A stretch of DNA of 42,342 bases, from contig JBGPML010000001.1 in assembly GCA_041486955.1 (NCBI GenBank), positions 1-42,342 of the forward strand, in the 5' to 3' direction. A program made the position numbers and the translations under genes. The notes below the pieces were generated by a model. It saw only the letters and a program-made list of their open reading frames with translations. It ran no database searches and was not told the DNA's origin. Below, piece after piece: positions 3,420 through 34,692 of the stretch; position 1 is the stretch's first letter, and every line of letters begins with the position of its first letter. The DNA is from Patescibacteria group bacterium (GTDB lineage: Bacteria; Patescibacteriota; UBA1384; 2-12-FULL-50-11; DASWYB01).

Positions 3420-3698
3420 CGAGACAGTTCGGTCTTCATCTGTTGTGGGCGTTGAAGCTTGAGAGGGTCTGTCCCTAGTATGAGAAGACCGGGATGGACG
3501 AACCTCTGGTGTGCCAGTTGTACTGCCAAGTGCATTGCTGGGTAGCTATGTTCGGTTGGGATAACCGCTGAAAGCATATAAGCGGGAAGCCCGCCTCAAG
3601 ATTAGGCTTCGTTATGAGGGTCCTGGAAGACCACCAGGTTGATAGGCACTAGGTGTACGTGTAGCAATACATTTAGCCGCGGTGTACTAATAACCCCA

Positions 3699-3735
3699 TT
3701 ACAAGAGATTTTCTGTTTCCGATTAAGTTCCGGAA
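3699..3735 (+). other. 3' arm of 23S rRNA processing stem
   Basis: Complementary to 441-477 (see the 5' arm feature). Confidence 0.7.
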
Positions 3736-4105: not shown

Positions 4106-4297
4106 ATGACACCGTGGGTTCCAGTAATTCTGCTCGTCTTCGTGATCGCTTTCCTAGTCTTTACGCTTATCAAAAATATGAGGGCGACAACAGGAGAAGA
4201 AACCGAACAGTTCACGGTCGTAATTCTCTGCTTCGTGGGAATTGCCGCATGCGGCTTCGCTATACGGTATTTCGCCACCCAACTGCTTTCCCGCTGA
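4106..4297 (+). CDS. 2-TM miniprotein (63 aa) in the 23S-5S spacer
   Basis: SD GAAAGGGAGGAAA about 6 nt before the ATG. Two hydrophobic helices (WVPVILLVFVIAFLVFTLI, VVILCFVGIAACGFAI). A small hairpin CCCGCT/AGCGGG lies at the stop. Confidence 0.55.
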   Translation: MTPWVPVILLVFVIAFLVFTLIKNMRATTGEETEQFTVVILCFVGIAACGFAIRYFATQLLSR

Positions 4298-4332
4298 TGT
4301 TTAGCGGGCCCTACTTAGAGGAATTAAGATGT

Positions 4333-4397
4333 GTCATCGCGAGCGGAAGCATGGCGAGCTTAACCAGATTGCTTCGTCGATTACTCCTCGCAATGAC
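4333..4397 (+). other. nested two-helix RNA structure 20 nt upstream of 5S
   Basis: GTCATCGCGAG (4333-4343) pairs with CTCGCAATGAC (4387-4397) with one mismatch. An inner helix GAAGCA (4346-4351) / TGCTTC (4370-4375) sits inside it. Confidence 0.45.
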
Positions 4398-4416
4398 AGA
4401 CTATATAGAAGACACC

Positions 4417-4536
4417 GTGTTGGTGCTTAGAGCGGTGGGGGTACACCCCTTCCCATTCCGAACAGGACCGTTAAGCCCACCAGCGTCGATGATACTTGAG
4501 GCGCAAGCCTCTGGGAAAGTAGACCAGCGCCAACAC
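4417..4536 (+). rRNA. rrf: 5S ribosomal RNA
   Basis: 120 nt. GTGTTGGTG...CGCCAACAC forms the terminal helix. Conserved CCCATTCCGAACAGGACCGTTAAGCC and GGGAAAGTAGACC blocks are present. Confidence 0.9.
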
Positions 4537-4620
4537 AGTGTCTTTTATTTTGCCAAAATATATCCTAGCATGAATGAGTCGTCCACATCCGAACAGTTTC
4601 GCGTGAGAAGGGGGGGAAGT

Positions 4621-5064
4621 ATGTGGTCAGTCACTATCGCCAACTTTGTCTTGGGCATTATTGGTATCATGTTTGCTCGGGGACTCCAGCGAACGTGGCA
4701 AAATGCCTATCCAATGATTGTGGGTAAGAAATCTCTCGTCCGTGTTGGTCAGGCAATTGCCGTGGCGGTCGGAATCAATTCGTTGGTCGTGATTGAAGAG
4801 GCTCTTTATATTATTTTCAAGGGGCCAAGTGTGGTATTTTCTCTATGGCTCATTCCTATTACCACTATAACGGCTTCCCTCGGCTTATTCAGCGTCAGTT
4901 ATCTAAGTTACTGTCGTGTAAAAAACGATCTTCCGTTCGATTACCCGAGATGGTCAATGTCATACTTTGGTGAAGAGCTGACAATGAAACTATTTTTGAG
5001 TTTCGGAGTTATTGCTCTTTTATCCTGTCTTGTAGGATATATCTGGATCTTCTGGCCCGCATAA
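4621..5064 (+). CDS. hypothetical 4-TM membrane protein (147 aa)
   Basis: C-terminal part of track ORF 4114-5064. ATG 4621 is preceded by GAAGGGGGGAAG. An alternative ATG is at 4570. The N-terminal part of the track ORF runs through the 5S gene and is rejected. Followed by a good terminator. Confidence 0.6.
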   Translation: MWSVTIANFVLGIIGIMFARGLQRTWQNAYPMIVGKKSLVRVGQAIAVAVGINSLVVIEEALYIIFKGPSVVFSLWLIPITTITASLGLFSVSYLSYCRVKNDLPFDYPRWSMSYFGEELTMKLFLSFGVIALLSCLVGYIWIFWPA

Positions 5065-7197: not shown

Positions 7198-8184
7198 ATG
7201 TCCTTAACTATTCCTAAGTGGATCCGGCCATCTATCCAAGCAATTGGTAGTGTGGTTCTTTTTATTCTCTTTATCACCTTTTTTTGGCGTGAACGTAACG
7301 AGCTATCTCATTTGCGGCAAATTGTGACAGGAGCCAATCTTTCATTTCTCTCTCTAGGGATTTTTTTAAGTCTCTTAACCATCTTTATCCAAGGGCTATT
7401 CTATCAGTCAACGCTAGCTATGCTTCATAAGGAAATTCCGTTTCGAGTCGCCCTCAGTACCTATTTAAAACGCTTTTTCTTAGGATCATTTATTCCTGCT
7501 GGCGCAACCGTTTCTCAATTTACATTTAGTGATGAGGCCGAAGAACATAAGGTTAACGAGCTCGAAAGCCATTTAGCCGCTGCTTTTTTTATTTTTATTG
7601 GCGCAATCGTCTATATATTGATTCTCTATCCCACCGCCCTCTATTCATATTTGACTGGACGATTAAGCGGCGCAGAAAGCCTCAGCAGTTTGATCTTAAT
7701 CATAATTACATTGCTGTTATTTATCGATTTCTTCATTCTCTTCGAACAACGAGGCGTGATTTTCACGCTCGCATCAAAAATACGCCCGAATGTACCGCGT
7801 TTTATCGCCTCATGGCGAAATCGCGCATTCAATCAAGAGGCTATGGCCCGGGCATTTCTTTATGCTGGTTTATATCAAGCCACCAGCATTGTGATCGTTC
7901 TGGTCACATTTCAGGCACTGAACTTGCCTGGCGATATTTATGTGGCACTGGTCTGTTATGTTACCACTGTACTACTCTTAACAATTTCGCCGGTGTTTCA
8001 AGGGATTGGGTTGGTAGAATTTTCGCTCGTCTATACCTTGCAGCGTTTCGGTTTTGAAAAGGATCAAGCGGTAGCTATTACCATTCTTTATCGTCTGTTT
8101 CAGTTATGGATTCCACTTCTGATTGGATTTATTGTCTATCTGCAAAGCAAAATTAGCGATTCATTGCAGAAGCCAAAAAACTGA
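7198..8184 (+). CDS. MprF-flippase-like / lysylphosphatidylglycerol synthase TM-region family membrane protein
   Basis: 328 aa, about 8 TM helices. Colinear with residues 1 to ~325 of the next gene, for example LKRFFLGSFIPAGATVSQFTF versus LKRFFVGSFIPAGFTVSQFTF and LYRLFQLWIPLLIGF versus LFRLFQLWIPFFIGF. Confidence 0.85.
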   Translation: MSLTIPKWIRPSIQAIGSVVLFILFITFFWRERNELSHLRQIVTGANLSFLSLGIFLSLLTIFIQGLFYQSTLAMLHKEIPFRVALSTYLKRFFLGSFIPAGATVSQFTFSDEAEEHKVNELESHLAAAFFIFIGAIVYILILYPTALYSYLTGRLSGAESLSSLILIIITLLLFIDFFILFEQRGVIFTLASKIRPNVPRFIASWRNRAFNQEAMARAFLYAGLYQATSIVIVLVTFQALNLPGDIYVALVCYVTTVLLLTISPVFQGIGLVEFSLVYTLQRFGFEKDQAVAITILYRLFQLWIPLLIGFIVYLQSKISDSLQKPKN

Positions 8185-8259
8185 ATTTCAGAGTCAGTTA
8201 GGACATAATGTTATGATTGTGTAAGATTTCGTTATGAATTACTGCGTAAATAAAATTCT

Positions 8260-10941
8260 ATGACATTCAATCAACCCAAAATGTATAAAGCCTTTTGGCA
8301 ATCGCTCATTGGAATTGTCTTAGTTGCTCTTTTCATTGCTTTTTTATGGCAGCAAAGACGAGAACTGTACAATTTAAAACTGATAATCTTACAGGCAAAT
8401 TATACCTATATGTTTTTAGGGGTAGCGATAACCGGGGCATACTTTCTGGCTCAAGGTTTGTTTTATCAGAGCTGTTTGGCATTGCTGCACCAGCACGTCC
8501 CATTAACCGATGCAGTTAAAATCTATTTAAAGCGTTTCTTTGTCGGATCGTTTATTCCGGCCGGCTTTACTGTTTCTCAATTTACATTTCAATCTGACTT
8601 AAAAAAATATTCTATTAACGAAACAGAGAGTAATTTTGCGTCAATACTCTATCTTATTCTAGGTGCAATAACCTACGTTGCTATATTAATTCCTACCATT
8701 GTTTACCTCATTTATGGCAGTCATCTTACCTCACTCGAGCAGTACGGTAGCTTGGGTTTTATTGTCGTTATTTTGTTTGTCAGTATAGAGTTTTATTCTT
8801 TTATTCGCGAAAAGGGTATTGTCTATCGCTTGCTTCGACGTCTGATCCCGAATCTGTCATCTTTTATGGCGTCGTTACGAAAGACGTCATTCAACCGAAA
8901 TGTATTGATTCGAGCCTTTGCCTATAGTTTTCTTGTTGATGTATTAAGTATTGTAACGCTTTTAATAACGTTTAAAGCCTTAAATATCGCTCCCTCGCTT
9001 CTGATCGCCACGATTGGCTATGTCCTCACCATATTACTTCTGAGCATTTCACCAATTTTTGAAGGAATTGGGGTGGTAGAAGTCTCTTTGGTTTATGTCC
9101 TCATTCAATTTAATGTACCAAGAGATGCCGCCATTGCAGCAACTCTTCTTTTCCGATTGTTTCAGCTGTGGATCCCGTTTTTCATCGGATTTTTCTTGGC
9201 TTTACGAAATAAAATTGAAACTTCATTTCAATATCTACCAGTCGTATTAGTATTCTTACTCGGCGTAATCAATATCGTCTCGGCAGTAAGCCCACCGTTA
9301 ACCCACCGGCTTGATTTTTTGGAAGAGTTTTTCTCGCTGGATTTCTTAGTCTACTCGCGAATATTTACGCTCGTGTTGGGCTTTCTTCTTCTCTATCTGG
9401 TTTATAATCTTATTCATCGCTCCTACCGTGCTTGGCAAGCGACCGTTATATTTACTCTCTTTTCGATTATTGGCCATCTTGTTAAAGGGATTGATTATGA
9501 AGAGGCTGTATTCGGAGTAATTGTTTTAATTTCACTTTACATCTATAGAAACCACTATCGAATTAAAAATAGTTTGAGTCGGGTCAGAAAGGGCATAGTC
9601 ATCCTATGGATGGGGTTTGCCTTCGCCATATTTTATGGACTAATCGGATTTTATTTTCTTGATAAGAAACAATTTGGCGAGACGTTTACCCTCGGCCAGG
9701 CATTCCATCATCTTATTCGTTTATATTTTGAGTTTGGTGATATTAGTTTACATCCCCACACAATGTTTGCGCGTCTTTTTATCGGTTCAATTTATGGTGT
9801 TGGAATATTTTCACTCCTCTATGGAATTATATCGATTTTTCAACCAACCTTACGTGCATATCAAACTATTCCAGAAGAATATGATAAAGCCCAGCGTCTG
9901 ATTCAATCGTACGGCCATAACAATCTCGATTATTTTAAATTATATTGGGACAAGTCGTTCTTCTTTTCATCCACCAACGACGCATTTATTGCTTATAAGG
10001 ACATTAACGGTTATGCTCTCGTCCTCGGCGATCCTGTCGGCAAAAATGAAACAGCCATTAAACGAATAATTGAAGAATTTGCCGCATTCTCTGAATCGGC
10101 TGGGCTGCGAGTGGCGTTTCAGCAGGTGAGTAGTGAATATCTTAAGTTATATAAGCAGTTAGAATGGAATTATTTCAAAATAGGAGAAGAAGCCGAAGTG
10201 CTACTCGGGAATTTCTCACTGGAAAAGCCCGAGTTTAAAGAATTTCGGTCTATTATCCGTCGATTTGAAAGGGAAGGATACCGTTATACGCTTCATACCC
10301 CTCCGGTTAGTGCTGGTCTGATTCAAAAACTCCACCAAGTTTCTGACGAGTGGTTATCGTTACCGTTTCGAACTGAGCGGATTTTTACACAAAGTATGTT
10401 TGAATCAAGCGCCTTGATGCAGACAAAGATAGCAACGGTTGAAGATCACGAAGGCCAAATTTTAGCTTTTATCAGCCTCCTTCCTGATTATGATCATGGA
10501 AAGGTCGCATTGGATATGATGCGTCGAAAAACCAAGGTTCCGAATGGAGTTATGGAATTTTTAGTTGTTCAAACGATTTGGTCTCTCCTGCAATCAGGGT
10601 ATACATCCTTCAGTTTAGGATTAGCGCCTTTGTCGGGTGTCGGAGATCAGGAAAACGCAGGGATCCCCGAAAAATCGCTTAAATTTTTCTATGATCATTT
10701 TAATAAAGTGTTCAGCTATAAAGGGCTGCGGCAATTTAAAGCTAAATTCGCTCCGGAGTGGAGTCCCCGTTATTTGGTGTATCGAAGTCAAATAGAATTA
10801 CCCACATTGGCTGTTGCCTCCGTTAAAGCTGGGCAGGTCGGGGGCTTTACAGCTTTTTTTGAAAGTGCCCTCAAGCATCGACTTCAAACGAAACATGCCA
10901 CTATGATGGAACGAATCCAAAACAAAGAAAATACCTCATGA
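8260..10941 (+). CDS. mprF: bifunctional aminoacyl-phosphatidylglycerol synthase/flippase (MprF-like)
   Basis: 893 aa. The N-terminal part is polytopic membrane region. The C-terminal soluble domain (DYFKLYWDKSFFFS..., AFIAYKDINGYALVLGDPVG, KGLRQFKAKFAPEW) matches the MprF synthase (DUF2156-type) domain. Confidence 0.88.
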   Translation: MTFNQPKMYKAFWQSLIGIVLVALFIAFLWQQRRELYNLKLIILQANYTYMFLGVAITGAYFLAQGLFYQSCLALLHQHVPLTDAVKIYLKRFFVGSFIPAGFTVSQFTFQSDLKKYSINETESNFASILYLILGAITYVAILIPTIVYLIYGSHLTSLEQYGSLGFIVVILFVSIEFYSFIREKGIVYRLLRRLIPNLSSFMASLRKTSFNRNVLIRAFAYSFLVDVLSIVTLLITFKALNIAPSLLIATIGYVLTILLLSISPIFEGIGVVEVSLVYVLIQFNVPRDAAIAATLLFRLFQLWIPFFIGFFLALRNKIETSFQYLPVVLVFLLGVINIVSAVSPPLTHRLDFLEEFFSLDFLVYSRIFTLVLGFLLLYLVYNLIHRSYRAWQATVIFTLFSIIGHLVKGIDYEEAVFGVIVLISLYIYRNHYRIKNSLSRVRKGIVILWMGFAFAIFYGLIGFYFLDKKQFGETFTLGQAFHHLIRLYFEFGDISLHPHTMFARLFIGSIYGVGIFSLLYGIISIFQPTLRAYQTIPEEYDKAQRLIQSYGHNNLDYFKLYWDKSFFFSSTNDAFIAYKDINGYALVLGDPVGKNETAIKRIIEEFAAFSESAGLRVAFQQVSSEYLKLYKQLEWNYFKIGEEAEVLLGNFSLEKPEFKEFRSIIRRFEREGYRYTLHTPPVSAGLIQKLHQVSDEWLSLPFRTERIFTQSMFESSALMQTKIATVEDHEGQILAFISLLPDYDHGKVALDMMRRKTKVPNGVMEFLVVQTIWSLLQSGYTSFSLGLAPLSGVGDQENAGIPEKSLKFFYDHFNKVFSYKGLRQFKAKFAPEWSPRYLVYRSQIELPTLAVASVKAGQVGGFTAFFESALKHRLQTKHATMMERIQNKENTS

Positions 10942-21006: not shown

Positions 21007-22713
21007 ATGGATTTTGCTGAATGGCAACGCCGACTCACCGTCATCATCACCTTGGCCGGGTTGATGCTTCTCACGTTCACGGGTCGTCTGTATCAGAAAA
21101 CCGTCATTGAATATAAAGATACGGTCCAGGCGGCCGAAAATCAGTATATGTACCGCAAAGAGGTTGATGGACAGCGAGGTTCTATTGTGGTTAAACTCGA
21201 TGATCATACTTATTATCCATTGGCCACTAATGAAGAGCGTTACGAAGTAATTGTTGTGCCTAATCAAGTTCTAGATCCAAAAACGACAGCTAAAGGTCTG
21301 GCGCCAGTCATCGAATTATCGGAAAATGATATTTATAACAAAATTAATAATAAGAAGTTTTACATTCCACCACTAAGGCATCGATTGTCGAGACAACAAT
21401 ACGATAAGATCACTGCTCTCCATTTACGAGGAGTTTTGCTATACCCCGAGTCTGTAAGAATATATCCTGAAAAGTCATTAGCTTCGCAATTGCTTGGATT
21501 TGTAAACAATGATGGCGAGGGTAATTATGGTCTAGAAGGGACATTCGACCAAGTTCTTCGTGGAGAAAATGGGTATCAAGTCGGTGAAAAAGACAATCAA
21601 AATCGTTTAATTAACGTCAACGACGAAGTCAAAGCAAAAACCGGCGCGACAATAGTATTAACAATCGATCGAGATATACAGAGGTATGTCGAAACTACAC
21701 TCGCTGATGCCGTTAAAAATTATCAAGCGGATAGTGGGTCTGTCGTTATTATGGATCCCAAAACAGGCGCCATCATCGCTATGGCCTCTGTGCCTACCTA
21801 TGATCCAAATGACTATAATACGGTGGCGAAAGACAATCAGAATGTATACATAAATCCAGTTATATCGAATTCATGGGAACCAGGCTCTATTATGAAACCT
21901 TTAGTTATGGCCATGGCTATAGATAAAGGGCTGGTAGAGCCCGATACCAAAGAGACATTCGGAGCCTCAATTCGAGTTTTGAATCACGATATTTATACGG
22001 CAGAAAAGAAAGCCTTTGGCACCGAAACGATGACTCAAGTCCTTGAAAATTCCGACAACGTCGCGATGGTTTGGCTCGCCAATAAACTCGGAAACGATAG
22101 TCAGTATGAAGAAATGAAAAAATTTGGTTTTGGCGATAGTCCCAAGTTAAATCTTAAAAATGTCGCCGGTGGGTTTATGCCCGATGTCAAGAAATGGAAT
22201 GATTTAACCCGAGCAACATTGTCTTTTGGACAGGGCATTGCCGCAACACCGCTGCAAATGGTTACCGCCTATAGCGCACTCGCCAATAAAGGGGTGATGA
22301 TGCAGCCGTATATCGTGTCTGATGTTCTTGATGAGCAAGGGACCATTTCTACCATTAAACCAACTGAAGTTGGGCATGTTGTCAGTGAAGACACCAGCAA
22401 TAAAATCAGTCTTATGTTAGAATCAGTAGTGGAAAATGGTTTAGGTAAACGAGCAAAAGTACCAGGGTATCGTATTGGTGGCAAAACGGGTACTGCTCAA
22501 GTGGCTGACCCAAATGGCGGCTATTATGAAGATCGACACATCGGCTCTTTTGCCGGTTATTTTCCTATCTCGAATCCACAATATGCAATGGTGGTTAAAT
22601 TAGATAATCCAAAAAGTGTTCAATTTGCTGAATCATCAGCCGGGCCAACCTTCGGCCAAATTGCTGCCTGGGTTCTTTACCATCAACAAGTCTTACCGGA
22701 TAAACCACAATGA
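21007..22713 (+). CDS. ftsI: class B penicillin-binding protein (FtsI/PBP2-type transpeptidase)
   Basis: TM anchor, dimerisation domain, and transpeptidase motifs SIMK (SxxK), SDN (SxN) and KTGT. The track ORF starts at TTG 20980; ATG 21007 is preferred. Confidence 0.9.
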   Translation: MDFAEWQRRLTVIITLAGLMLLTFTGRLYQKTVIEYKDTVQAAENQYMYRKEVDGQRGSIVVKLDDHTYYPLATNEERYEVIVVPNQVLDPKTTAKGLAPVIELSENDIYNKINNKKFYIPPLRHRLSRQQYDKITALHLRGVLLYPESVRIYPEKSLASQLLGFVNNDGEGNYGLEGTFDQVLRGENGYQVGEKDNQNRLINVNDEVKAKTGATIVLTIDRDIQRYVETTLADAVKNYQADSGSVVIMDPKTGAIIAMASVPTYDPNDYNTVAKDNQNVYINPVISNSWEPGSIMKPLVMAMAIDKGLVEPDTKETFGASIRVLNHDIYTAEKKAFGTETMTQVLENSDNVAMVWLANKLGNDSQYEEMKKFGFGDSPKLNLKNVAGGFMPDVKKWNDLTRATLSFGQGIAATPLQMVTAYSALANKGVMMQPYIVSDVLDEQGTISTIKPTEVGHVVSEDTSNKISLMLESVVENGLGKRAKVPGYRIGGKTGTAQVADPNGGYYEDRHIGSFAGYFPISNPQYAMVVKLDNPKSVQFAESSAGPTFGQIAAWVLYHQQVLPDKPQ

Positions 22714-23945
22714 AGTCATTTTTTGTCTCTATCATTCGACTGATTTTATACGGACAGGCATCTGTTTTCCGATCACGTTACTCCGGTCCAGTTATCGCTA
22801 TAACGGGTAGCGTTGGAAAGACGAGCACGAAAGAAGCAGTCGGACAGATGATAAAAAAAGCGTACGGTAATGAATCTATCGTCACTCCGAAAAGTCTTAA
22901 TACTGAAATCGGTGTTCCCTTAACTATCCTTGGTTTTCAATCCGAACCCCATTCTATTTTCGGGTGGTTACGAGCACTTGCTCGAGGCACGATCGTCGCC
23001 TTCTTCGGTCAAGTTCCAAAATGTATGGTTTTAGAATTAGGCGCGGATCATAAGGGGGACATCGCCTATCTGGCACGATTGGTTCGTCCGACTCACGCCG
23101 TTATTACGTCAGTAAGCGAATCGCATAGTCAATTTCTTGGTAATCTCGAGGCAATACAACAGGAGAAAACATCTTTACTCCAATTTGTGAGTCTCGATGG
23201 TTGGATTTTTTTGAATGGTAATGATGATTATTTAAGCAAAATAAAAGTTGCTGATCCACAACATAAAATCTTAGTCCGTCTACATCAGCGGGCTGATTAC
23301 TTTGTCTCCGGCATCTCGGTCAACGAATCAGGTACGCATGGCGTGTTGCATCATGATAATCGAACCCAACGATTACTGATCAACCGCTTTGGTGAACATC
23401 ACCTTTATAGTGTGCTTTTTGCCGCGGCGATCGGTGATAGCCTTAACATTCCAGCCAACACTCAGCTCCAAGCGTTTAAAGAAATCCGACCCATGCCCGG
23501 GCGAGGGTCGCTTATTCATGGGAAAAATAGCAGTTTGATCCTTGACGAATCATATAACGCCCAACCAGAAGCAATGGAAGCCGCCCTGGCCCTATTAAAG
23601 CAGTTCCCAGGTCAAAAAAAGATTGCCATTTTGGGCGATATGCGTGAATTACGTGATCCAGCCCCTATACACAAGCGGATCGGAAAGTTGGCTAAATTAA
23701 GTGCTGATTATGTGATTGCCGTTGGTCCTGAGAGTAAAAACTATCAGGCAGATACTTGGTTCATGACCGCTGATGAAGCCGTGCCGACTGCGTTGAGGCA
23801 GCTCCAACCCGGTGCTATAGTATTAGTAAAAGGTTCGCAAAACAGTATTCGTCTCGAACGTTTGGTTAAGGCTTTGATGGCTCATCCCAATCAATCCAAA
23901 CAACTTCTGGTACGACAAGAAGCGGAGTGGCTCGCTAAAACGTAA
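22710..23945 (+). CDS. murF: UDP-MurNAc-tripeptide--D-Ala-D-Ala ligase (MurF), short N-terminus
   Basis: 411 aa. P-loop ITGSVGKTSTKE already at residue ~31, then LELGADHKGD, DESYNAQPEAM and GDMRELR. ATGA overlap with ftsI. Confidence 0.88.
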   Translation: MKSFFVSIIRLILYGQASVFRSRYSGPVIAITGSVGKTSTKEAVGQMIKKAYGNESIVTPKSLNTEIGVPLTILGFQSEPHSIFGWLRALARGTIVAFFGQVPKCMVLELGADHKGDIAYLARLVRPTHAVITSVSESHSQFLGNLEAIQQEKTSLLQFVSLDGWIFLNGNDDYLSKIKVADPQHKILVRLHQRADYFVSGISVNESGTHGVLHHDNRTQRLLINRFGEHHLYSVLFAAAIGDSLNIPANTQLQAFKEIRPMPGRGSLIHGKNSSLILDESYNAQPEAMEAALALLKQFPGQKKIAILGDMRELRDPAPIHKRIGKLAKLSADYVIAVGPESKNYQADTWFMTADEAVPTALRQLQPGAIVLVKGSQNSIRLERLVKALMAHPNQSKQLLVRQEAEWLAKT

Positions 23946-25000: not shown

Positions 25001-25005
25001 TAAAA

Positions 25006-25080
25006 AATGACGAAATCCAAATACCAAAATCTGAATCCAACGAGCCGATTTTCGTCATTTGGCATTTTGTATTCGTCATT
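25006..25080. repeat. AATGACGAA / TTCGTCATT inverted-repeat element between mraY and ftsW
   Basis: AATGACGAAAT at 25006-25016, GATTTTCGTCATTT at 25047-25060 (about a 13-bp stem with one bulge), and a third copy ATTCGTCATT at 25071-25080. Confidence 0.6.
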
Positions 25081-26252: not shown

Positions 26253-26302
26253 AGCATTTAGATTTCGGAATTATCTTTGCTGTGCTTTATAATGAACATA
26301 AT

Positions 26303-27418
26303 ATGAAGGAAAAAAATTCCAAAATACATCATTCAGTTTGGCTGGTTGGCGGAGAGACCGCAGGTCATATTATGCCGCTCTTAGCGGTCGCAGAAGAGTT
26401 GAAGCATAGACATCCTCAAATACGACTGACCTATATAGGCGATGGTCAGGGGAGGGAAGCGACACTGGCGCGTCAAGCGGGAATACATTTTGTGTCCATT
26501 CAGAACGGAAAGCTTCGACGCTATTTAACTTTTGGCTCTATTCTACTTAATATTCGAGACTCACTTTTAGTTCTCATAGGTATCGTTCAAAGTTATCGCC
26601 TGATTAAGAGCAAAAAGCCCGACCTAATTTTCTCTAAAGGTGGACCAGTTGCGCTTCCCGTTGCTCTAGCCGCAGCAGCAACTCATACGCCACTCATTAC
26701 CCATGAATCCGATGTTGTCATGGGGATCTCAAATCGTCTGATTGCTAACTTTGCTTCGACTGTTCTGACGAGTTTTCCCGCGGCTTTCTATCCAACTCGT
26801 TTTGCCCACAAGATTAAATGGGTTGGGCTGCCTTTGCGCCCAGAATTCTGCGAATCACGACATACCACTCACCATGGCAAACCGATGGTTCTCATTACCG
26901 GCGGAAGCCAAGGGGCGATGGCAATTAATGAGATGATCGCCTCGATTTTACCAGATCTACTTCAGTCTGCTTCGGTTATGCATATTGTTGGTCCTCAATC
27001 CTATAAAGAATTTAAAGCGATCAAAGATGGCTTACCCGATGAAATTGCTGATAATTATGGTGTGCTAGATTTTACGCCGGACATTGCCGAATACATGCGC
27101 GAAGCGACGGTTGTGGTAACACGTGCCAGTTCGACGATTTTTGAATTAGCAACATTAGAAAAGCCGATGATTCTTATCCCGCTGCCAAGTGCGGCAAATA
27201 ATCATCAGCTCCAAAACGCCGAACTGTTTGTCCGTTATAATGCGGCTATACTTTTAAACCAAGAAAATTTGACGCCTTCTCTGCTCTATGAGACGATCAA
27301 CTCGCTTTTACACGATCCAAAATTACGGACCGAACTTAAGAAAGGAACTCGCAAGTTTAACTGTTGCGATTCATCTGCGCAGGTCGCAAATCTCATAGTA
27401 GATATAATAACTCAATGA
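26303..27418 (+). CDS. murG: UDP-GlcNAc:lipid I GlcNAc transferase MurG
   Basis: VGGETAGHIMPLLAV (G-loop), ITGGSQGA, and a C-terminal region with the NHQ..NA motif. ATG 26303 is preferred over GTG 26282. Confidence 0.9.
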   Translation: MKEKNSKIHHSVWLVGGETAGHIMPLLAVAEELKHRHPQIRLTYIGDGQGREATLARQAGIHFVSIQNGKLRRYLTFGSILLNIRDSLLVLIGIVQSYRLIKSKKPDLIFSKGGPVALPVALAAAATHTPLITHESDVVMGISNRLIANFASTVLTSFPAAFYPTRFAHKIKWVGLPLRPEFCESRHTTHHGKPMVLITGGSQGAMAINEMIASILPDLLQSASVMHIVGPQSYKEFKAIKDGLPDEIADNYGVLDFTPDIAEYMREATVVVTRASSTIFELATLEKPMILIPLPSAANNHQLQNAELFVRYNAAILLNQENLTPSLLYETINSLLHDPKLRTELKKGTRKFNCCDSSAQVANLIVDIITQ

Positions 27419-28818
27419 TTTCTTATCAATCAGTCCATTTTGTCGGTGTGCTGGCTCCAGAAATGGCTAGTCTGGCTTTTTTTTCAGTCGCATTGGGAAT
27501 CCAGGTGAGCGGTTCGCATGATGTCTCTCAGTCAATCTATCTCGACGAGCTCAAAAAGGCCGGCGTTACCTTTTACGATATGTATGCTCAAGTAAATATT
27601 GGAAAATCGGTCGATTTGATAGTTATTTCACATTATTATGATCTGCGTCATGTAGAAGCTGAAGCTGGACTGAAGTTGAAGATTCCCGTCATGTCAGAGA
27701 CCGATTATGCTAAGTTGGTGAGTGAGGATTGTCGTCGATTGGCAATATTGGGCGATTATGAGGCTAAAATTGTTGCTTCGTTCTTAGCCCATACGTGGCA
27801 GAACGCGCGAGTTCCTGTTCGTGGACTAACCAGTACGATCACATCAGCACATGAAGAAATTAGCTTGGCTGTTGCGGAAGAATCGGATTGGTTTATGTTA
27901 CCTCTAACCGGGTTTAAGCGAGATGCAACCACCTACGAGGCTGACTTTCTGTCCTATGAAGCAGAAATTGCGATGATTCCGAGCATTCTTTACGACTACC
28001 CTGAATTAAATACCACTCTCGACGATGTCTATCAGTCATTTTATGCTTTCGCCAAGCGAGTCCCGCGAAAAGGACTGATCATTGGAAACAGTGATTATGC
28101 CCGCATGAAACGGCTACATGTCCACCTCGTCGATCGCCATATTGAAACATATGGATTTGACCGTGATGCGAAATGGCAAATTCGTGAAGTTACGGTAGAA
28201 AATGGTAAAACTGAATTTTTTCTTATTCATGACCGTCGTCGTTTAGGCCCGTTTATTATTCCTTTTGTAGGAGATCGATTTGTTTATGCGGCCGCTGCGG
28301 TGTGTATCATTTCGATGATTATGGAGCTGCGACCGGAAATCGTCTATCGTGGGTTAGCAACGCTTCCGCAATATAGTCGGTTTAATGATATTAAACATGG
28401 GAAGGAGGGGCGATTACTGATCGATGATCAGGCCGATCATCCGGCAGTGATTGAAGATTTACTTTCGACAATTCGAACACAATATCCAGAGAAAAAAATC
28501 TGGTGTCTTTATCAACCGGGATCATATTTACGGACTAAAGCATTGTTTAGTGAACTAGAAAAGGCCCTTTCTATCGCCGATTTTGTTTATTTAGCCGATA
28601 TCAAAGGCTACCCCAAAGAGAAATCAGAAGGGTTGCATATCAGACATCTCATTGGCGAAATGAAACGAACCCATCCTCAAACCTATTATTTTGATTCTGC
28701 AAGTGAAATGTCGCATCTTTTAGCTGATCGAGTTGCTTCGACTGATTGTATCGTAAGTTGTGGGGTGGAAGGGGTGTGCCAAGAGATCCTCAGTTCTCTC
28801 TTGCCGCAAGTTGCATAG
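27415..28818 (+). CDS. MurC-like Mur-ligase homolog with substituted catalytic motifs
   Basis: 467 aa, colinear with MurC: VHFVGV...VSGS, AEESD, DDQADHP, YQPGSYLRT. However the P-loop reads GDYEAKI instead of GTHGKTT, and the NIxxDH motif reads IPSILYDY. ATGA overlap with murG. Confidence 0.8.
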   Translation: MISYQSVHFVGVLAPEMASLAFFSVALGIQVSGSHDVSQSIYLDELKKAGVTFYDMYAQVNIGKSVDLIVISHYYDLRHVEAEAGLKLKIPVMSETDYAKLVSEDCRRLAILGDYEAKIVASFLAHTWQNARVPVRGLTSTITSAHEEISLAVAEESDWFMLPLTGFKRDATTYEADFLSYEAEIAMIPSILYDYPELNTTLDDVYQSFYAFAKRVPRKGLIIGNSDYARMKRLHVHLVDRHIETYGFDRDAKWQIREVTVENGKTEFFLIHDRRRLGPFIIPFVGDRFVYAAAAVCIISMIMELRPEIVYRGLATLPQYSRFNDIKHGKEGRLLIDDQADHPAVIEDLLSTIRTQYPEKKIWCLYQPGSYLRTKALFSELEKALSIADFVYLADIKGYPKEKSEGLHIRHLIGEMKRTHPQTYYFDSASEMSHLLADRVASTDCIVSCGVEGVCQEILSSLLPQVA

Positions 28819-29784
28819 ATGACTATCAGCGATCACGTTCCAATGCGAGAAATTGCTTGGTTTCAAACCGGAGGCGTAACGCATTACTATACTGTTTGTC
28901 ATTCACTTGATGATATCGTCACTGCAGTACGCCAGGCTGGAGCCCTCCAGGTGCCGTACCGGGTAATCGGTGATGGATCCAATGTTCTCATGAGCGATTC
29001 GGGCTACCCGGGATTAATTATCCAGAATCGAGCAACTTCAATGCTGTTTGTTCATGATCGCTCCCAAGTCATTGTCGATGCAGGTACCCCTCTCAGCCAT
29101 GTTGTGAGTCGGGCAATTTCATTAGGATATAGTGGTCTTGAATTTCTATCAGGTATTCCAGGTACTGTGGGAGGAGCGGTATATGGCAACGCCACGGTTG
29201 GCGATAGCCATATTGGTAATTATGTTAAATCTGCCACCTTGCTTTTCCCCCGTGAGAAAGCCCCTTCGTCCGGCATCATTCGTCGGATTGATCGCGAGTG
29301 GTTTGAATTTAGTCCTTATACTTCTCGGTTGAAGCAGATGCAGTCGATTGATCCGGAAATGTGTTTACCGATTATCTTGTCAGTTACAATCCAACTCTCA
29401 AAGATGAGTCATGAGACATGTTTACAAAAAGTTAAAGCAATTACTCCTCAACGATTGCCGAAGTTCCCAGTATTACGCCCGTTCAGTACGGTTCGTTTAA
29501 AACAGAATGGTGAACAAACCATCATAAATCATCCTGCTTTGACTCAGGCTATGCATTATGTTGATCGTGCACAAGTGAAGCAATGGCATATCGGCGCAGT
29601 TTCCGTTTTTCAGGATGATCCGAATTTTATAATTAATTCTGGTTACGGTGCGAGTAAACAAGCATGGGAGCTCATTCATCTGATGCAACACGCTGAAGCG
29701 AGTGATCTTCATCCGCTTCAGACTCATATTGAGCGGGTTGGGTTGTGGGATGACGAGAGTGATGATATTTCGGCTATGGTATGA
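28819..29784 (+). CDS. murB: UDP-N-acetylenolpyruvoylglucosamine reductase (MurB), divergent C-terminal half
   Basis: The FAD domain is clear (WFQTGG, VIGDGSNVL, GIPGTVGGAVYGNA). The C-terminal substrate domain is recognisable (NFIINSG) but divergent. Confidence 0.8.
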   Translation: MTISDHVPMREIAWFQTGGVTHYYTVCHSLDDIVTAVRQAGALQVPYRVIGDGSNVLMSDSGYPGLIIQNRATSMLFVHDRSQVIVDAGTPLSHVVSRAISLGYSGLEFLSGIPGTVGGAVYGNATVGDSHIGNYVKSATLLFPREKAPSSGIIRRIDREWFEFSPYTSRLKQMQSIDPEMCLPIILSVTIQLSKMSHETCLQKVKAITPQRLPKFPVLRPFSTVRLKQNGEQTIINHPALTQAMHYVDRAQVKQWHIGAVSVFQDDPNFIINSGYGASKQAWELIHLMQHAEASDLHPLQTHIERVGLWDDESDDISAMV

Positions 29785-29831: not shown

Positions 29832-30596
29832 ATGAGATCAAGAATTCATCGTATGCCCGGTCTTATGCCGGGAAAACCGCTGCCGAAAGAGCGGTCGTCC
29901 TCGAATCGGTATCGTTATATCGGTATAGTTTTGGTTGTCGGTGGAATTATCAGTGGGCTGTACTGGTTTTTCTTTCTTAGTCCAGTTTTTTCAATTGAAA
30001 AAATAGAAATCATAGGTTCAGATAATGAGTCAGTCCGGGCCGCTGCTGATCGATTGACTGGCGGAAATATTTTTCGACTGCACGCAACTTCTCTCGCTCA
30101 GACTCTGACTCAATCCTATCCGCCGATTGAGACTGTGACCGTTGTGCGCGGATTACCCCATGTGGTCCGAATTAATATCACCTTGCGACGACCGGCGCTT
30201 CGTTGGCAGATCAATGACGTGATTTATATCATCGATTCGGAAGGGGAGATTTTCGAGCAAGGTGATAAACCAGACTATGCAGATTTGCCTAAGATAGTCG
30301 ATAAATCCGGGCTGGCGACAGACATAGGACAAACAATTGTAACGCCAGAATTTATTCAATTTGTGACTGATATGCAAAAGCGGATTCCAACGCTATTCAC
30401 GCAAGCTTACCTGGGCAATGAAATTTCAGAAACGACATTTCATATCGATGCTTTGCTGCAAGGGGATATTCGTATCCGCCTTACCGCGCAACGTCCGTTA
30501 CAGGAACAACTTGATGCCGCGAAGAGTATTTTAGCAAAACATCCCGAAGCGAAAATAATCGATGTCAGAGCTACTCGTTGGGGGTATTGGAAATAA
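29832..30596 (+). CDS. ftsQ: FtsQ/DivIB-type cell division protein (TM + POTRA)
   Basis: 254 aa. TM helix YIGIVLVVGGIISGLYWFFFL followed by IEKIEIIGSDN... (POTRA-like). The position at the end of the dcw cluster fits. Confidence 0.75.
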   Translation: MRSRIHRMPGLMPGKPLPKERSSSNRYRYIGIVLVVGGIISGLYWFFFLSPVFSIEKIEIIGSDNESVRAAADRLTGGNIFRLHATSLAQTLTQSYPPIETVTVVRGLPHVVRINITLRRPALRWQINDVIYIIDSEGEIFEQGDKPDYADLPKIVDKSGLATDIGQTIVTPEFIQFVTDMQKRIPTLFTQAYLGNEISETTFHIDALLQGDIRIRLTAQRPLQEQLDAAKSILAKHPEAKIIDVRATRWGYWK

Positions 30597-30740
30597 TAGA
30601 AAATCTTTTATGAGCTTAGTAAGCTACCGTATGGTTAGATGATTACAAACATAAGTTGAATATATTCTAGGTTGCAGACCCTCACGCGCACGATGTTCAC
30701 GGGGTTCAATCTGAGGTATAATCGACTCGGAGGATGACAC

Positions 30741-32402
30741 ATGGTAAAAAACTGGCGCGATGGCCCACGAGTCACGACCGATCTCTTTTCGCACGTTGTG
30801 TCTCGAAGAAAAATAGATAATCTCGACACTTTTCTTGAGCCGCGTTTTCCGGACGATCTTCATGATCCGTTTCGTCTGACTGATATGGATCAAGCCGTCA
30901 AACGGTTTTGGCACGCTATCGAAGCCGATGAACCAATTGGCATTGTTGGTGACTATGATATGGATGGTACACCGGGAGCGGCGTTATTATCGCTTTTTAT
31001 AAACTTGGTAGCAAAACCTCCTCATGTTATCTTGCCTACCCGGGAAGAAGGGTATGGTTTTTCACCACTTTTTGTAGATCGCTTGCATGTCAAAAATGTA
31101 AAACTAATCATAACTGTGGATTGCGGTATCCGAAATAACGATACCGTTACCTATGCATCTTCTAAAGGAATTGATGCCATAATTATTGACCACCATGAAT
31201 GTGGAGCTGAATTGCCGGCAGCATCGGCCGTAATTAATCCCAAGCGCCCTCATTCAGATTATCCATTCAAAGAATTATGTGGCACAGGAGTAGTCTATAA
31301 ATTTATTACGGCGGCGATTGCTGTGGCTCCAAAAAGTAAGCAATCTGATATTCCCGCCAATTGGTTACCCTGGTCACTTGATTTAGTGGCTCTCGCGACA
31401 ATCGGGGATATGGTACCACTTATCGATGAAAACCGATTGCTCGTGCATTATGGTCTTAAAGTATTGCAGAAAACCCGACGACTCGGATTGCAACGTTTAT
31501 TTTCCGCCCTTGAGCTGGATATGTCCCGAATCAGCTACAGCGATATTGTATTCAAAATTATTCCGAAATGTAATGCCTCAGGTCGGATGCATAGTATGGA
31601 TGATGTCTTTATCCTTCTTCAGAGTAACGACATTAATGAGATTGATCGAGCGATTAAACAGATCATGTCTCGCGGAACGCAGAGTCAGCTTATTCTAACT
31701 AAGATGATGGAACAAGCGAAAGGTTTGCAATCTGAATCATCTGGATCGATCGTCTTGATCACGGGGGATGATTGGCATCCAGGACTAACAGGCGTGGTGG
31801 CTGGCCGTTTAACTGAGGAATGGGGGCGTCCGGTCGGGGTGCTGGCGAAGGTTACTGATGATACTTACCGAGGCAGTATACGAAGCATACCAGGCGTCAA
31901 TATCCCCGATTTGCTCGATTCTGCATCTGACCTGATTGAAGCCTATGGCGGACATGATCAGGCCGCCGGCTTAACGGTTCAGAAAGACAAAGTTGCCACC
32001 CTTCAGAAATTTTTAAGTACGGCTCCTATACCTGACGGTCCAGCGACACTCATTGAAACCGAAGGGACTATTTCGCCGGAGATTCTTTCAGTTGAGACGC
32101 TCGAGGCACTCGAAAGACTCATGCCATGGGGGATAGGTAATCCAGAACCACTATGGAGTCTTACCGGGACGACGATTACTCGCAGTCAATGGTTAAGTGA
32201 CGGCCGTCATCTTAAAGCGTGGCTGGGCGACAGAGTAGCAAGTTTATCGGTTATTTTCTTCGGAGCGGACACAAAACATCCACCAACTGAAGGTGTGGTA
32301 GATGTCTATGGAACATTAAGTATAAATGAATTTCGCAATCAGCGTGAACCACAAATGATTGTGAAAGGGATGTCATCAGCTCAATCGTTACAAATGATAT
32401 AA
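30741..32402 (+). CDS. recJ: single-stranded-DNA-specific exonuclease RecJ
   Basis: DHH motifs IGIVGDYDMDGT, TVDCGI, IIIDHH, GDMVPL and the DHHA1 motif GGHDQAAG. SD GGAGGA. A TATAAT at 30716-30721 lies upstream. Confidence 0.9.
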   Translation: MVKNWRDGPRVTTDLFSHVVSRRKIDNLDTFLEPRFPDDLHDPFRLTDMDQAVKRFWHAIEADEPIGIVGDYDMDGTPGAALLSLFINLVAKPPHVILPTREEGYGFSPLFVDRLHVKNVKLIITVDCGIRNNDTVTYASSKGIDAIIIDHHECGAELPAASAVINPKRPHSDYPFKELCGTGVVYKFITAAIAVAPKSKQSDIPANWLPWSLDLVALATIGDMVPLIDENRLLVHYGLKVLQKTRRLGLQRLFSALELDMSRISYSDIVFKIIPKCNASGRMHSMDDVFILLQSNDINEIDRAIKQIMSRGTQSQLILTKMMEQAKGLQSESSGSIVLITGDDWHPGLTGVVAGRLTEEWGRPVGVLAKVTDDTYRGSIRSIPGVNIPDLLDSASDLIEAYGGHDQAAGLTVQKDKVATLQKFLSTAPIPDGPATLIETEGTISPEILSVETLEALERLMPWGIGNPEPLWSLTGTTITRSQWLSDGRHLKAWLGDRVASLSVIFFGADTKHPPTEGVVDVYGTLSINEFRNQREPQMIVKGMSSAQSLQMI

Positions 32403-32414
32403 GGTAGATATTTT

Positions 32415-33752
32415 ATGGCCAAAACAAAAACACTGTTTGTCTGTTCCAATTGTGGAGAAGAATCGATTACTTGGCAGGGACGTTGCCCAGTCTGTGGCGA
32501 ATGGAATACATTCAAAGAGTTTAAAGTTGAAACATCATACGCTGGCACGAAAGCAAGAAATGAATCAATAACTCTCCAAACTTTGAATATTGCTCAAATA
32601 GAAGAGCATTTGGGGCGCATTTCAACAGGATTGTCTGAGTTTGACTCAGTTCTTGGCGGCGGTATTGTCAAAGGGAGTGTGATATTACTTGGAGGTGAGC
32701 CAGGAATTGGAAAATCAACCTTACTATTACAAGTCGCTCAATCAGTCGGATCAGTCGAAAAGGTTATTTACTTTTCCGGCGAAGAATCAGAAGTGCAGGT
32801 CGCTGGTCGAGCCAAGCGATTAGGTTTAGAGCCTTGTTTTCTCTTTGCCAATGAAACACGATTAACAACGATTCGCTCAGTTTTAGAAACGGAAATGCCG
32901 AGCTTAGTGATTATCGATTCTATTCAAACATTATATGATGAAGCATTTCCCAGCACACCGGGCAGTTTAGTTCAGGTTCGTGAATGTTCATTAAAGCTTC
33001 AAGATATGGCCAAACAGTTGGGTATAAGCGTCATTTTAGTCGGGCACATTACGAAAGAAGGAACGGTCGCTGGTCCGAAAACCCTCGAGCATATGGTTGA
33101 TGTGGTATTATATCTGGAGGGCGAGCCAAGGTCAGAAATGCGCATTCTGCGCAGCATGAAAAACCGCTTTGGCGCGACCAATGAAGTCGGCCTCTTCCAA
33201 TTATCAGAAACAGGCTTGTCGATTGTTACTGATCCATCGGGAGTGTTTATTGAAGACCATGGTGATCCAGTACCGGGCACAGCATTAACGGCCGTGTTGG
33301 AAGGTGTCCGACCAATTTTGGTCGAAGTCCAAGCATTAGTAATGCCGACTCCTTTCGGTTATCCTAAGCGCACCAGCCTAGGAGTAGACCTCCAACGCCT
33401 TCATATTCTTCTCGCGATACTCGATAGCCGAACCAACGCTTCCTTTGCATCGAGTGATGTGTTTATTAATGTTGTGGGAGGCTATAAGATTCAAGATCGT
33501 GGCGCCGACTTAGCATTATGTATGGCGATGCTTTCAGCGTCGGGTGGGGTTGCTATTCCGAACAAGCAAGTATTCTATGGAGAAGTCGGCTTAACCGGTG
33601 AGGTCCGTAAAGTCAGCCAAAGCGAACGTCGAGCGAAAGAAGTCAGTCGGCTTGGCTACATCGCAACTCCAAATGGCAAAACGATTCGTGATATCGGGGC
33701 TCAATTTAATCTCTTAAATAAACGAGATCGCAAAACTAATCATGCTGATTGA
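32415..33752 (+). CDS. radA: DNA repair protein RadA/Sms
   Basis: Zinc finger CSNCGEES...CPVCGEWN, Walker A GGEPGIGKST, the KNRFG motif and a Lon-like C-terminal domain. Confidence 0.95.
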   Translation: MAKTKTLFVCSNCGEESITWQGRCPVCGEWNTFKEFKVETSYAGTKARNESITLQTLNIAQIEEHLGRISTGLSEFDSVLGGGIVKGSVILLGGEPGIGKSTLLLQVAQSVGSVEKVIYFSGEESEVQVAGRAKRLGLEPCFLFANETRLTTIRSVLETEMPSLVIIDSIQTLYDEAFPSTPGSLVQVRECSLKLQDMAKQLGISVILVGHITKEGTVAGPKTLEHMVDVVLYLEGEPRSEMRILRSMKNRFGATNEVGLFQLSETGLSIVTDPSGVFIEDHGDPVPGTALTAVLEGVRPILVEVQALVMPTPFGYPKRTSLGVDLQRLHILLAILDSRTNASFASSDVFINVVGGYKIQDRGADLALCMAMLSASGGVAIPNKQVFYGEVGLTGEVRKVSQSERRAKEVSRLGYIATPNGKTIRDIGAQFNLLNKRDRKTNHAD

Positions 33753-34692
33753 AAATTCACAGGATGTCTATTTCCTCTTAATCGCTTTAGTCGTGGCCGT
33801 TTCAGCCTATTTTATCTTCAGGCGCCTACTTCATGTCTCATTTCCGTATTTCTTTTTAGGCCTCTTCGGTTTAATTATTGGGCTTCTAGTGGGATCCCTG
33901 GTTGGACGGTTACTCGTTGGGTTACCTGGGAATTTTGGCCGATGGCTTCCTCTTATTATCAACGTGATTATCGCGGTTGGCGTATTCGACCTCTTCTTAG
34001 CTCAGGCTCAAACGGCGAGCGATTTTATTCGCACGTTGCTTAAACGTGAAGAAAAAGATAACGAATTGGCAGTAGTTCTCGATACGTCTGTCTTGATTGA
34101 CGGACGCATCGAGAGTATCGTTGAGACCGGATTTATCCCTGGTAATTTAATCGTTCCCCAAGTTGTTTTGAAAGAATTACAGAAACTTGCTGATGCAAGA
34201 GATGCGATGAAGCGATCGAAAGGCAAGCGAGGGCTCGATGTCTTAGCAAGTTTACGCAATCAGCCTCGAGTCAAAATTACGGTCGTGCAAGAGCCGCAGG
34301 CGGAAGAAACAGTTGATGCCGAATTAATCCGATTAGCTCAGAAAAATAACGCACAACTGCTCACACTTGATTATAATCTTAATCAAATTGCCCACATTCG
34401 CGGCGTTCATGTCTTGAATATTAATGCGTTAGCCAGCGCACTTCGGCCGGTTCTTCTCCCTGGTGAAACGTTAATGGTCACGGTGATTCAAAAGGGCAAA
34501 GAGCCGGGGCAAGGAGTAGGTTACTTACCAGATGGGACGATGATCATTGTTGAAGGCGGAGATAAAATGGTAGACCGCGAAATTGAATGTGAAGTTGTTC
34601 GTATCTATCAAACCGTCAGTGGGAAAATTATTTTCGTTGCTCCAAAGCACCCAAATAAAGAGAAAAAGGCCAATGGGACAGATCGAAGTTGA
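33742..34692 (+). CDS. PIN/TRAM domain membrane protein (YacL-like)
   Basis: N-terminal TM helices, a PIN domain (VLDTSVLIDGRI...DAELI) and a C-terminal TRAM-like beta domain. The position after radA matches the Firmicutes yacL locus. Confidence 0.8.
   Translation: MLIENSQDVYFLLIALVVAVSAYFIFRRLLHVSFPYFFLGLFGLIIGLLVGSLVGRLLVGLPGNFGRWLPLIINVIIAVGVFDLFLAQAQTASDFIRTLLKREEKDNELAVVLDTSVLIDGRIESIVETGFIPGNLIVPQVVLKELQKLADARDAMKRSKGKRGLDVLASLRNQPRVKITVVQEPQAEETVDAELIRLAQKNNAQLLTLDYNLNQIAHIRGVHVLNINALASALRPVLLPGETLMVTVIQKGKEPGQGVGYLPDGTMIIVEGGDKMVDREIECEVVRIYQTVSGKIIFVAPKHPNKEKKANGTDRS

Follow-up and report, generated by a model that had tools for sequence, protein, structure and literature searches.

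A conserved MurC homologue without the ATP-binding motif in the division and cell wall cluster of Patescibacteria: a candidate Mur-ligase pseudoenzyme

The division and cell wall (dcw) gene cluster considered here lies on contig JBGPML010000001.1 (assembly GCA_041486955.1) of a Patescibacteria group bacterium, of which positions 1 to 42,342 of the forward strand were analysed; this whole stretch of 42,342 nucleotides is called the window in the following. At the place canonically taken by murC, between murG and murB, the window contains an open reading frame (ORF) on the plus strand (27415-28818) encoding 467 amino acids (aa). Its product, MurCL (MurC-like), possesses the three-domain Mur-ligase fold and is the positional orthologue of the dcw MurC, and its contacts to UDP, ATP and magnesium are largely replaced. 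The ATG of MurCL overlaps the stop codon of the preceding canonical GT28-type murG (26282-27418, plus strand) within the sequence ATGA at 27415-27418, and at 28816-28821 its stop codon TAG passes without a gap into the ATG of a murB-like gene (28819-29784, plus strand), which has kept its flavin adenine dinucleotide (FAD) domain and exhibits degenerate substrate-site motifs. This overlap or abutment with murG and murB is found in the window as well as in two related loci, L036 and L044.

Concerning homology, MurCL residues 7-463 align colinearly with a solved MurC structure (9ir5; HMMER, E = 9e-29). The best NCBIfam model is that of murC (TIGR01082, residues 7-455), with a score of 167.9 bits that stays below the equivalog cut-off of 335.1; the model of the paralogue Mpl (TIGR01081) reaches 68.3 bits, below its equivalog cut-off of 388.7. 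The two terminal Mur-ligase domains of Pfam exceed their gathering scores (PF02875: 38.5, cut-off 28.4; PF01225: 28.9, cut-off 21), whereas the central ATPase domain falls short of it (PF08245: 19.4, cut-off 24). An AlphaFold2 (AF2) model computed from a sequence alignment is a confident three-domain MurC fold, with a predicted local distance difference test score (pLDDT) of 94.5 and a predicted template modelling score (pTM) of 0.93. Its best matches in the PDB according to Foldseek are the MurC enzymes of Escherichia coli and Haemophilus influenzae (2f00 and 1p3d), with a template modelling (TM) score of 0.89; both are closed, ligand-bound forms, whereas open apo forms reach only 0.52-0.60. 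An earlier interpretation made from the letters of the window alone (hereafter the sequence-only reading) had regarded the protein as homologous to MurC and its gene as occupying the customary murC slot between murG and murB, and full-length colinearity, fold and synteny all agree with this.

The catalytic motifs were compared in an alignment of 31 members of the main MurCL clade, two early-branching members and the 107 nearest canonical MurCs. The mapping of motifs was obtained with both HMMER and MAFFT, and the secondary structure of the AF2 model agrees with it at the strand of the EADE motif. The roles of single residues of MurC and Mpl in contacting UDP, ATP, magnesium and the amino acid follow Das et al. 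2011 (PMC3060825). All coordinates given for motifs refer to the plus strand.

The glycine-rich UDP loop GIGGxGM is lost, being represented by G11-V-L-A-P-E-M17 (27445-27465); the family consensus at this place is G-V-L-x-P-E-M, and of the 29 members with a residue at position 16, 22 have an acidic one (Glu or Asp). In the following GSD motif, Gly and Ser are kept and Asp is exchanged for His35 in the window protein (GSH), whereas 26 of 32 family members retain the Asp. The ATP-binding P-loop G(T/S)HGK(T/S)T reads G113-D-Y-E-A-K-I119 (27751-27771), such that the Lys and Thr positions are lost; Tyr115 is invariant (32/32) and position 116 is acidic in 30 of 32 members. Both replacements had been named in the sequence-only reading, that of the P-loop with the same coordinates, and the pattern G..GK[ST] is absent from all 34 main-clade sequences. 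Some otherwise canonical Patescibacteria MurCs (P0064, P0066, P0077 and others) possess the P-loop GVGGK(T/S), with Gly in place of an otherwise invariant His.

The EADE motif, comprising the Glu that binds the first magnesium ion (Mg1) and the Glu that replaces the carbamylated Lys found in other Mur ligases, corresponds to P163-L-T-G166 (27901-27912) and is lost. In this register the strand WFMLP of MurCL (residues 159-163; strand 159-164 in the AF2 model) matches YFVME or YLVAE of canonical MurC, so that the former equation of AEESD (residues 158-162) with EADESD proved to be wrong. An alternative register, obtained when HMMER aligns MurCL to short-type MurCs, places EADE on D170-A-T-T173; the second Glu is missing in both registers. 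Of the DH motif (D194-Y195, 27994-27999), Asp is kept, whereas the His binding the second magnesium ion (Mg2), present in 100% of the canonical MurCs, is replaced by Tyr or Phe in 31 of 32 family members; the early-branching P0050 keeps it. The adenine motif GxHNxxN is likewise lost (G286-D-R-F-V-Y-A292, 28270-28290). In R322-F323, the counterpart of RR(F)E, the first Arg is kept and may be the triphosphate Arg, the alignment being ambiguous by one residue.

In the C-terminal part, DDYAHHP corresponds to D337-D-Q-A-D-H-P343 (28423-28443), in which the ribose-binding Asp338 is kept and an invariant Asp341 has taken the place of the first His; QPH(R/T)Y(T/S)RT corresponds to Q367-P-G-S-Y-L-R-T374 (28513-28536), with Gly in place of His369 and an invariant Arg373; and GAGD has degenerated to G450-V-E-G. 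For these two longer motifs, as well as for the lost DH His and the degenerate PGxHN, the alignment reproduces the counterparts named from the sequence alone. Expressed in the numbering of H. influenzae MurC (HiMurC), the Mg2+ ligands E173 and H198 are Pro163 (Asp170 in the alternative register) and Tyr195 in MurCL. Within the amino-acid site (HiMurC Y346, H348, H376, R377 and R380), only the equivalent of Arg380 is kept, as Arg373; Tyr is exchanged for Gln, and the two His for Asp and Gly, while at the position of HiMurC Arg377 the nearest canonical relatives of MurCL already have Thr. Altogether, the ATP, Mg and UDP contacts named in PMC3060825 are replaced, apart from Asp338 and possibly Arg322, and three former phosphate-contact positions (16, 116 and 341) carry acidic residues.

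MurCL is a small and discrete family of Saccharibacteria/Patescibacteria in which the absence of the P-loop is not due to chance. A search of 5.8e9 protein clusters yielded 35 homologues at 40-64% identity, beyond which identity drops directly to about 25%, the level of canonical MurC and Mpl, and in a profile search of 1.84e9 representative proteins the family reached 733 and 543 bits, the next match 282 bits. Two family sequences are short fragments and were left out of the P-loop comparison; the pattern G..GK[ST] is missing in 34 of 34 main-clade sequences, whereas the near-full-length MurC matches outside the family contain an exact P-loop in all cases but one (P0121, with GTHGKGT). A pattern scan of 185,579 GTDB species representatives recovered two carriers of MurCL (L001 and L002), the other 30 full-length matches being canonical P-loop MurCs, mostly from metagenome-assembled genomes (MAGs) of Saccharibacteria and other Patescibacteria. 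Family members likewise derive from MAGs, labelled 'Patescibacteria group' or 'Candidatus Saccharibacteria', and one of them is named 'cyanophycin synthetase' at NCBI. The ORFs are intact, of 444-476 aa, in around 35 lineages.

Purifying selection on MurCL is strong. In the two most similar pairs (L043/L001, 83.5% aa identity; L044/L045, 82.9%), nonsynonymous divergence (dN) amounts to 0.112 and 0.123 for MurCL, compared to 0.168 and 0.195 for MurG, 0.163 and 0.124 for MurB, and 0.170 and 0.171 for FtsQ. Synonymous divergence (dS) exceeds 1.4 or is saturated even in these pairs, such that dN/dS can be given only as an upper bound, of around 0.06 where calculable. At larger distances MurCL and MurG are similarly conserved, with identities of 53.6 and 55.7%, respectively, between the window and L002, and of 54.1 and 53.6% between the window and L036. 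The constraint is distributed differently from that of the canonical enzyme: residues 96-200, the former ATP half-domain, form the least conserved block of the family, whereas in canonical MurC no other block is as conserved. Within the family, conservation is tightest in the motifs IWCLYQPGSYLR, RMKRLxxHLxDR, YPELNTTLDDVY, DIxGYPKEKSEG and KRDAxTYEADFL, and 45 positions (among them Tyr115, Gly166, Asp341, Tyr366, Ser370 and Leu372) are at least 90% conserved in the family, yet rare in canonical MurC.

The catalytic residues were lost in steps. The two early-branching members, P0035 and P0050, occur in the same context between murG and murB and still possess a P-loop, GSYGK(S/T)T. P0050 additionally keeps the DH His, whereas EADE, the HN motif and the QPH His are missing in both, which indicates that the contacts to magnesium and adenine were lost first and the P-loop later.

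The gene order FtsI-MurF-MraY-(UppS...)-FtsW-MurG-MurCL-MurB-FtsQ-RecJ-RadA-PIN is kept in eight further loci, each of a distinct family member (L001, L002, L036, L037, L042, L043, L044 and L045). The closest canonical MurC, that of the P0051/P0319 cluster, is situated in a syntenic locus of a sister lineage, L046, with the order MurF-MraY-UppS-...-MurD-FtsW-MurG-MurC-MurB-FtsQ-RecJ-PBP1a(-)-TyrRS. Between this locus and the window, identity amounts to 61% in MraY, 48% in PBP1a (a penicillin-binding protein, PBP), 45% in FtsW and 37.5% in MurG. Its MurC (408.8 bits, cut-off 335.1), MurD (339.5, cut-off 212) and MurB (276.6 and 196 in two models, cut-offs 259 and 144.5) all exceed the NCBIfam cut-offs, and since L046, similarly diverged elsewhere, thus keeps all three, the degeneration is specific to MurC and MurB and not lineage-wide. 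That the divergence of the motifs is specific had also been concluded in the sequence-only reading, from MurF of the same operon, and this sister locus together with the intact MurF upholds it. A general divergence of proteins of the candidate phyla radiation (CPR) was considered as the cause of the motif loss and is ruled out by L046.

The murB-like gene directly following MurCL has changed in parallel. Its product stays below the NCBIfam cut-offs (PRK13905, 144.9 compared to 259; a second model, 111 compared to 144.5), and a comparison of 24 MurBs of the clade with 96 canonical Patescibacteria MurBs demonstrates that the FAD-binding half is retained and the substrate-site motifs are degenerate. 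The catalytic triad of MurB consists of Arg, Ser and Glu (R159, S229 and E325 in E. coli). The catalytic Arg of the (Y)R motif is kept in 25% of the clade MurBs and is Tyr in the window protein; in SAG(C/S)xFKNP, 96% have Leu instead of Gly and NP has disappeared; ERTAG is gone, HAN has become NPN, and the first two Glu of the C-terminal L..EE.EY are missing. Most of the substrate-site motifs are kept in the P-loop-bearing lineages, as well as in the MurB of the sister lineage. Nevertheless, the murB-like gene is under purifying selection, with a dN/dS of around 0.06.

Concerning murD, the sister locus contains this gene between mraY and ftsW (L046, 6468-7823, 339.5 bits), and it is absent from this slot in every locus of the clade. 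In the window, the slot is reduced to the mraY-ftsW junction at 25001-25058, which in the sister lineage accommodates murD together with uppS and other genes; a tblastn search with the MurD of the sister lineage, covering about 140 kb of clade DNA, gave no match. These 140 kb yielded neither a murE nor a second murC, and the window, too, contains no murE. MurF (22710-23945, plus strand, 411 aa), by contrast, serves as an internal control: it lacks the usual N-terminal domain, its match beginning around residue 93 of Pseudomonas aeruginosa MurF, while its catalytic residues are intact (P-loop TGSVGKTST, Glu, His and DESYNAQP), as had been noted for the P-loop from the sequence alone. Its score of 239 bits, below the NCBIfam cut-off of 288.6, is thus explained by the missing domain, and since MurF is equally short in the sister lineage (406 aa, also lacking this domain), this is a trait of the lineage.

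In a Saccharibacteria MAG with canonical MurC (L030, 16202-20495), mraY is followed by a MurL-like gene (246 bits) and then by murD; MurL belongs to the UDP-MurNAc-L-Ala-L-Glu epimerase family (MurNAc, N-acetylmuramic acid), and the gene order there suggests an L-Glu/epimerase route as in Xanthomonadales.

We consider it somewhat more probable than all other explanations together (about 0.55) that MurCL is a MurC-derived pseudoenzyme that has been kept to serve the precursor machinery around MurG in a non-catalytic capacity, L-Ala being ligated elsewhere or this step being bypassed. Clear homology to an enzyme family together with the loss of catalytic residues, by which pseudoenzymes are operationally recognised, coincides in MurCL with purifying selection and intactness in around 35 lineages, and from its residues we infer that it is inactive as UDP-MurNAc:L-Ala ligase. 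MurCL would then be kept as a structural or regulatory subunit of an assembly for precursor synthesis and division centred on MurG, and the overlapping or abutting codons suggest that its translation may be coupled with that of murG and murB. Natural fusions of MurB with MurC and of MurG with MurC exist, and Mur enzymes co-localise with MurG (PMC6420597). A scaffold role within the Mur/MurG/divisome assembly is proposed because of the codon overlap with murG and murB, these natural fusions and the streamlined genome, in which a useless copy would be deleted, as murD apparently was from its slot. Regarding the mode of action, Glu16, Glu116 and the invariant Asp341 would occupy what used to be the nucleotide pockets and pair with Arg322 and Arg373, both of which are retained, thereby mimicking the ligand, and the resulting salt bridges would lock MurCL in a closed, 'ligand-bound-like' shape recognised by partner proteins; the AF2 model is consistent with such a mimicry. 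MurF, MraY, MurG, FtsW and the PBPs stay canonical in the clade, and the loss of MurB motifs together with the disappearance of murD from its slot suggests that L-Ala would be added by an unlinked enzyme or the step bypassed by salvage. Among the three candidates put forward in the sequence-only reading (pseudoenzyme for scaffolding, ligase with a non-canonical nucleotide site, decaying gene), the first is therefore the best supported as far as the pseudoenzyme is concerned, the scaffolding itself being what we infer.

Some observations weigh against this interpretation. The invariance of Tyr115, Gly166, Asp341, Tyr366 and Ser370 is explained by a remodelled ligand pocket no less well than by a pure scaffold; the closed conformation of the AF2 model may be a mere bias of the training set; and the early-branching members, with their P-loop, may still bind ATP.

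The first of these points leads to an explanation that we regard as possible, though clearly less probable than a pseudoenzyme, namely that MurCL has been neofunctionalised and that its remodelled cleft binds another ligand or runs an ATP-independent reaction, for example binding or handing over salvaged MurNAc-peptide or UDP-MurNAc-peptide, perhaps together with a co-evolved MurB-like flavoprotein. The 45 positions conserved in the family and rare in canonical MurC, former catalytic ones among them, speak for it, and the highly conserved C-terminal amino-acid-binding domain (e.g., IWCLYQPGSYLR and GYPKEKSEG), the partner with a kept FAD domain and a remodelled substrate domain, and the abutting or overlapping genes of the two also fit; however, neither a candidate ligand nor a set of catalytic residues can be put forward, constraint is weakest in the former ATP half-domain, and the invariant replacements could be purely structural fillings of the pocket. 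Slightly more doubtful still is a more far-reaching version, in which the clade would have abandoned the de novo chemistry of MurB, MurC and MurD and would obtain its precursor from MurNAc-peptide or UDP-MurNAc-peptide salvaged from a host, leaving MurF, MraY, MurG, FtsW and the PBPs as the only working enzymes; the inactive MurC would then, together with the altered MurB-like flavoprotein, form a coupled non-canonical module, either a scaffold or a binder or processor of salvaged muropeptide feeding MurF and MraY.

That MurCL is still the UDP-MurNAc:L-Ala ligase, with a non-canonical nucleotide or metal site, appears improbable. In such an enzyme the invariant Lys168, or Arg169, and Asp170 (the latter two nearly invariant) might take the places of the P-loop Lys and of the Mg-binding Glu, as the HMMER register with D170-A-T-T173 on EADE would allow, and Arg322, Asp338, Arg373 and His342 are retained; however, a Lys or Arg follows EADE already in the nearest canonical relatives, such that Lys168 is no new feature. 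The lack of a second murC in the clade DNA mentioned above speaks for an active ligase, as does a closed Saccharibacteria genome reported without recognisable murC (Starr et al., bioRxiv 10.1101/211649); in this genome, of 'Ca. Teamsevenus rhizospherense', which also lacks recJ, murC was described as 'possibly too distant for identification'. It does not appear to carry MurCL and is probably a separate case. Against an active ligase stand the joint loss of the glycine-rich loop, of Gly, Lys and Thr of the P-loop, of both Glu, the Mg2 His, the adenine HN..N and the triphosphate His, the Glu or Asp at three phosphate-contact positions, and the parallel changes of MurB and murD, by which substrate and next step also look missing. 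With the UDP, ATP and Mg contacts gone, the non-canonical ligase of the sequence-only reading is thus unlikely for the window protein, though conceivable for the two early-branching members with a P-loop. Furthermore, we know of no member of the Mur-ligase superfamily that works without GxxGK(T/S).

Least credible, and close to negligible, is a decaying pseudogene or a fast-evolving CPR gene the motif losses of which reflect drift or an alignment artefact. CPR proteins are generally divergent, and MurF and the MurB-like protein also score below their cut-offs, the former for want of its N-terminal domain with intact motifs and the latter through what we regard as parallel degeneration. However, intact ORFs in some 35 lineages, a dN below that of murG, a saturated dS and the low dN/dS refute the decaying gene that had been among the candidates; a pLDDT of 94.5, the sister MurC, MurB and MurD above their cut-offs, and the motif mapping reproduced by two programs and by the AF2 strand at EADE speak against drift and artefact.

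Compared to known systems, MurCL is most similar to MurC itself (TIGR01082; 1p3d, 2f00), with which it shares the three-domain fold, the length, the colinearity, the murG-murC-murB position and the residues Asp194, Arg322, Asp337/Asp338, His342-Pro343, Arg373-Thr374 and Glu402, and it is clearly descended from a Patescibacteria-type MurC with an EADEYRxS...PKF motif. It is set apart from MurC by the replaced motifs described above, by the acidic residues at phosphate-contact positions and by a TIGR01082 score below the cut-off. Mpl (TIGR01081; 3hn7), a paralogue of MurC, exhibits the same fold and a loop of similar length after EADE, and its chemistry would be the relevant one if the clade salvages peptides; however, Mpl keeps all ATP and Mg residues (PMC3060825), and Mpl-specific residues are absent from MurCL. 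The plant protein PAP11/MurE-like is the nearest precedent, in that a Mur-ligase fold was kept for a structural role in a complex after the peptidoglycan function had been lost (PMC12681378), whereas it derives from MurE, is eukaryotic and belongs to a transcription complex unrelated to the cell wall (the plastid RNA polymerase); the organism with MurCL still possesses MraY, MurG, FtsW and PBPs, and the MurCL gene has not left the dcw operon. A functional parallel are the degenerate LytM factors EnvC and NlpD, catalytically dead homologues of peptidoglycan hydrolases that are conserved as amidase regulators. They differ from MurCL in their fold and periplasmic location, and their regulatory role has been shown experimentally. 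Literature searches revealed no description of a MurC without P-loop, or of a bacterial Mur-ligase pseudoenzyme, and nothing relevant on murC in Patescibacteria.

The remaining dcw genes of the window start at 18881 (mraZ), 19612 (rsmH), 20980 (ftsI-type PBP), 23966 (mraY), 25059 (ftsW) and 29832 (ftsQ-like), and the content of the cluster indicates that the organism clearly builds peptidoglycan. Downstream of the ftsQ-like gene lie recJ, radA and a PIN/TRAM gene, then a minus-strand gene for a class A PBP, and finally tyrS and argS. The cluster closes with the ftsQ-like gene and passes directly into recJ-radA-PIN/TRAM (29832-34692), with no ftsA or ftsZ behind it, an order common to the clade and the sister lineage. 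An alanine racemase gene is situated at 16174. About 8 kb upstream of the window start, locus L039 contains a YkuD-type L,D-transpeptidase with a peptidoglycan-binding domain (1493-2944), which adjoins a gene with a T4SS_pilin Pfam match; both lie just upstream of the rRNA operon.

Within the rRNA operon, the 23S rRNA gene (468-3710, plus strand) measures 3243 nt compared to a model of 2925 nt, corresponding to an insertion of around 320 nt. An ORF within it (1085-1345, 86 aa) has a GIY-YIG Pfam match in the copy of the contig at JGI (Joint Genome Institute), which points to the remnant of a homing endonuclease or an intron. The 5S rRNA gene (4419-4535, plus strand) is located around 700 nt downstream of the 23S gene and is overlapped by a probably spurious ORF (4114-5064). 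At 7198-10941 (plus strand), two MprF-type genes are adjacent to each other, one of 328 aa with the LPG_synthase transmembrane domain only and one of 893 aa encoding a full-length lysyl-phosphatidylglycerol synthase; the pair points to aminoacylated lipids in a CPR bacterium.

MurC is an essential enzyme and antibiotic target, the activity of which is usually taken for granted in organisms producing peptidoglycan. If our interpretation is true, a conserved dead MurC in the dcw operon would constitute the first bacterial Mur-ligase pseudoenzyme that we know of, and its P-loop-bearing intermediates would represent a natural experiment on the order in which the active site of a ligase is dismantled. 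For pathway reconstructions, the family calls for caution, as they would report 'murC present' on the basis of a domain match or 'murC missing' on the basis of a cut-off, neither of which is right. The clade, a group of ultra-small Saccharibacteria, probably makes or obtains its wall precursor in an unusual way, be it through a ligase encoded elsewhere, through muropeptides salvaged from the host or through a novel reaction. If it is true that an epibiotic CPR clade has rewired or bypassed the early Mur steps, this would be considerably more novel than the pseudoenzyme itself.

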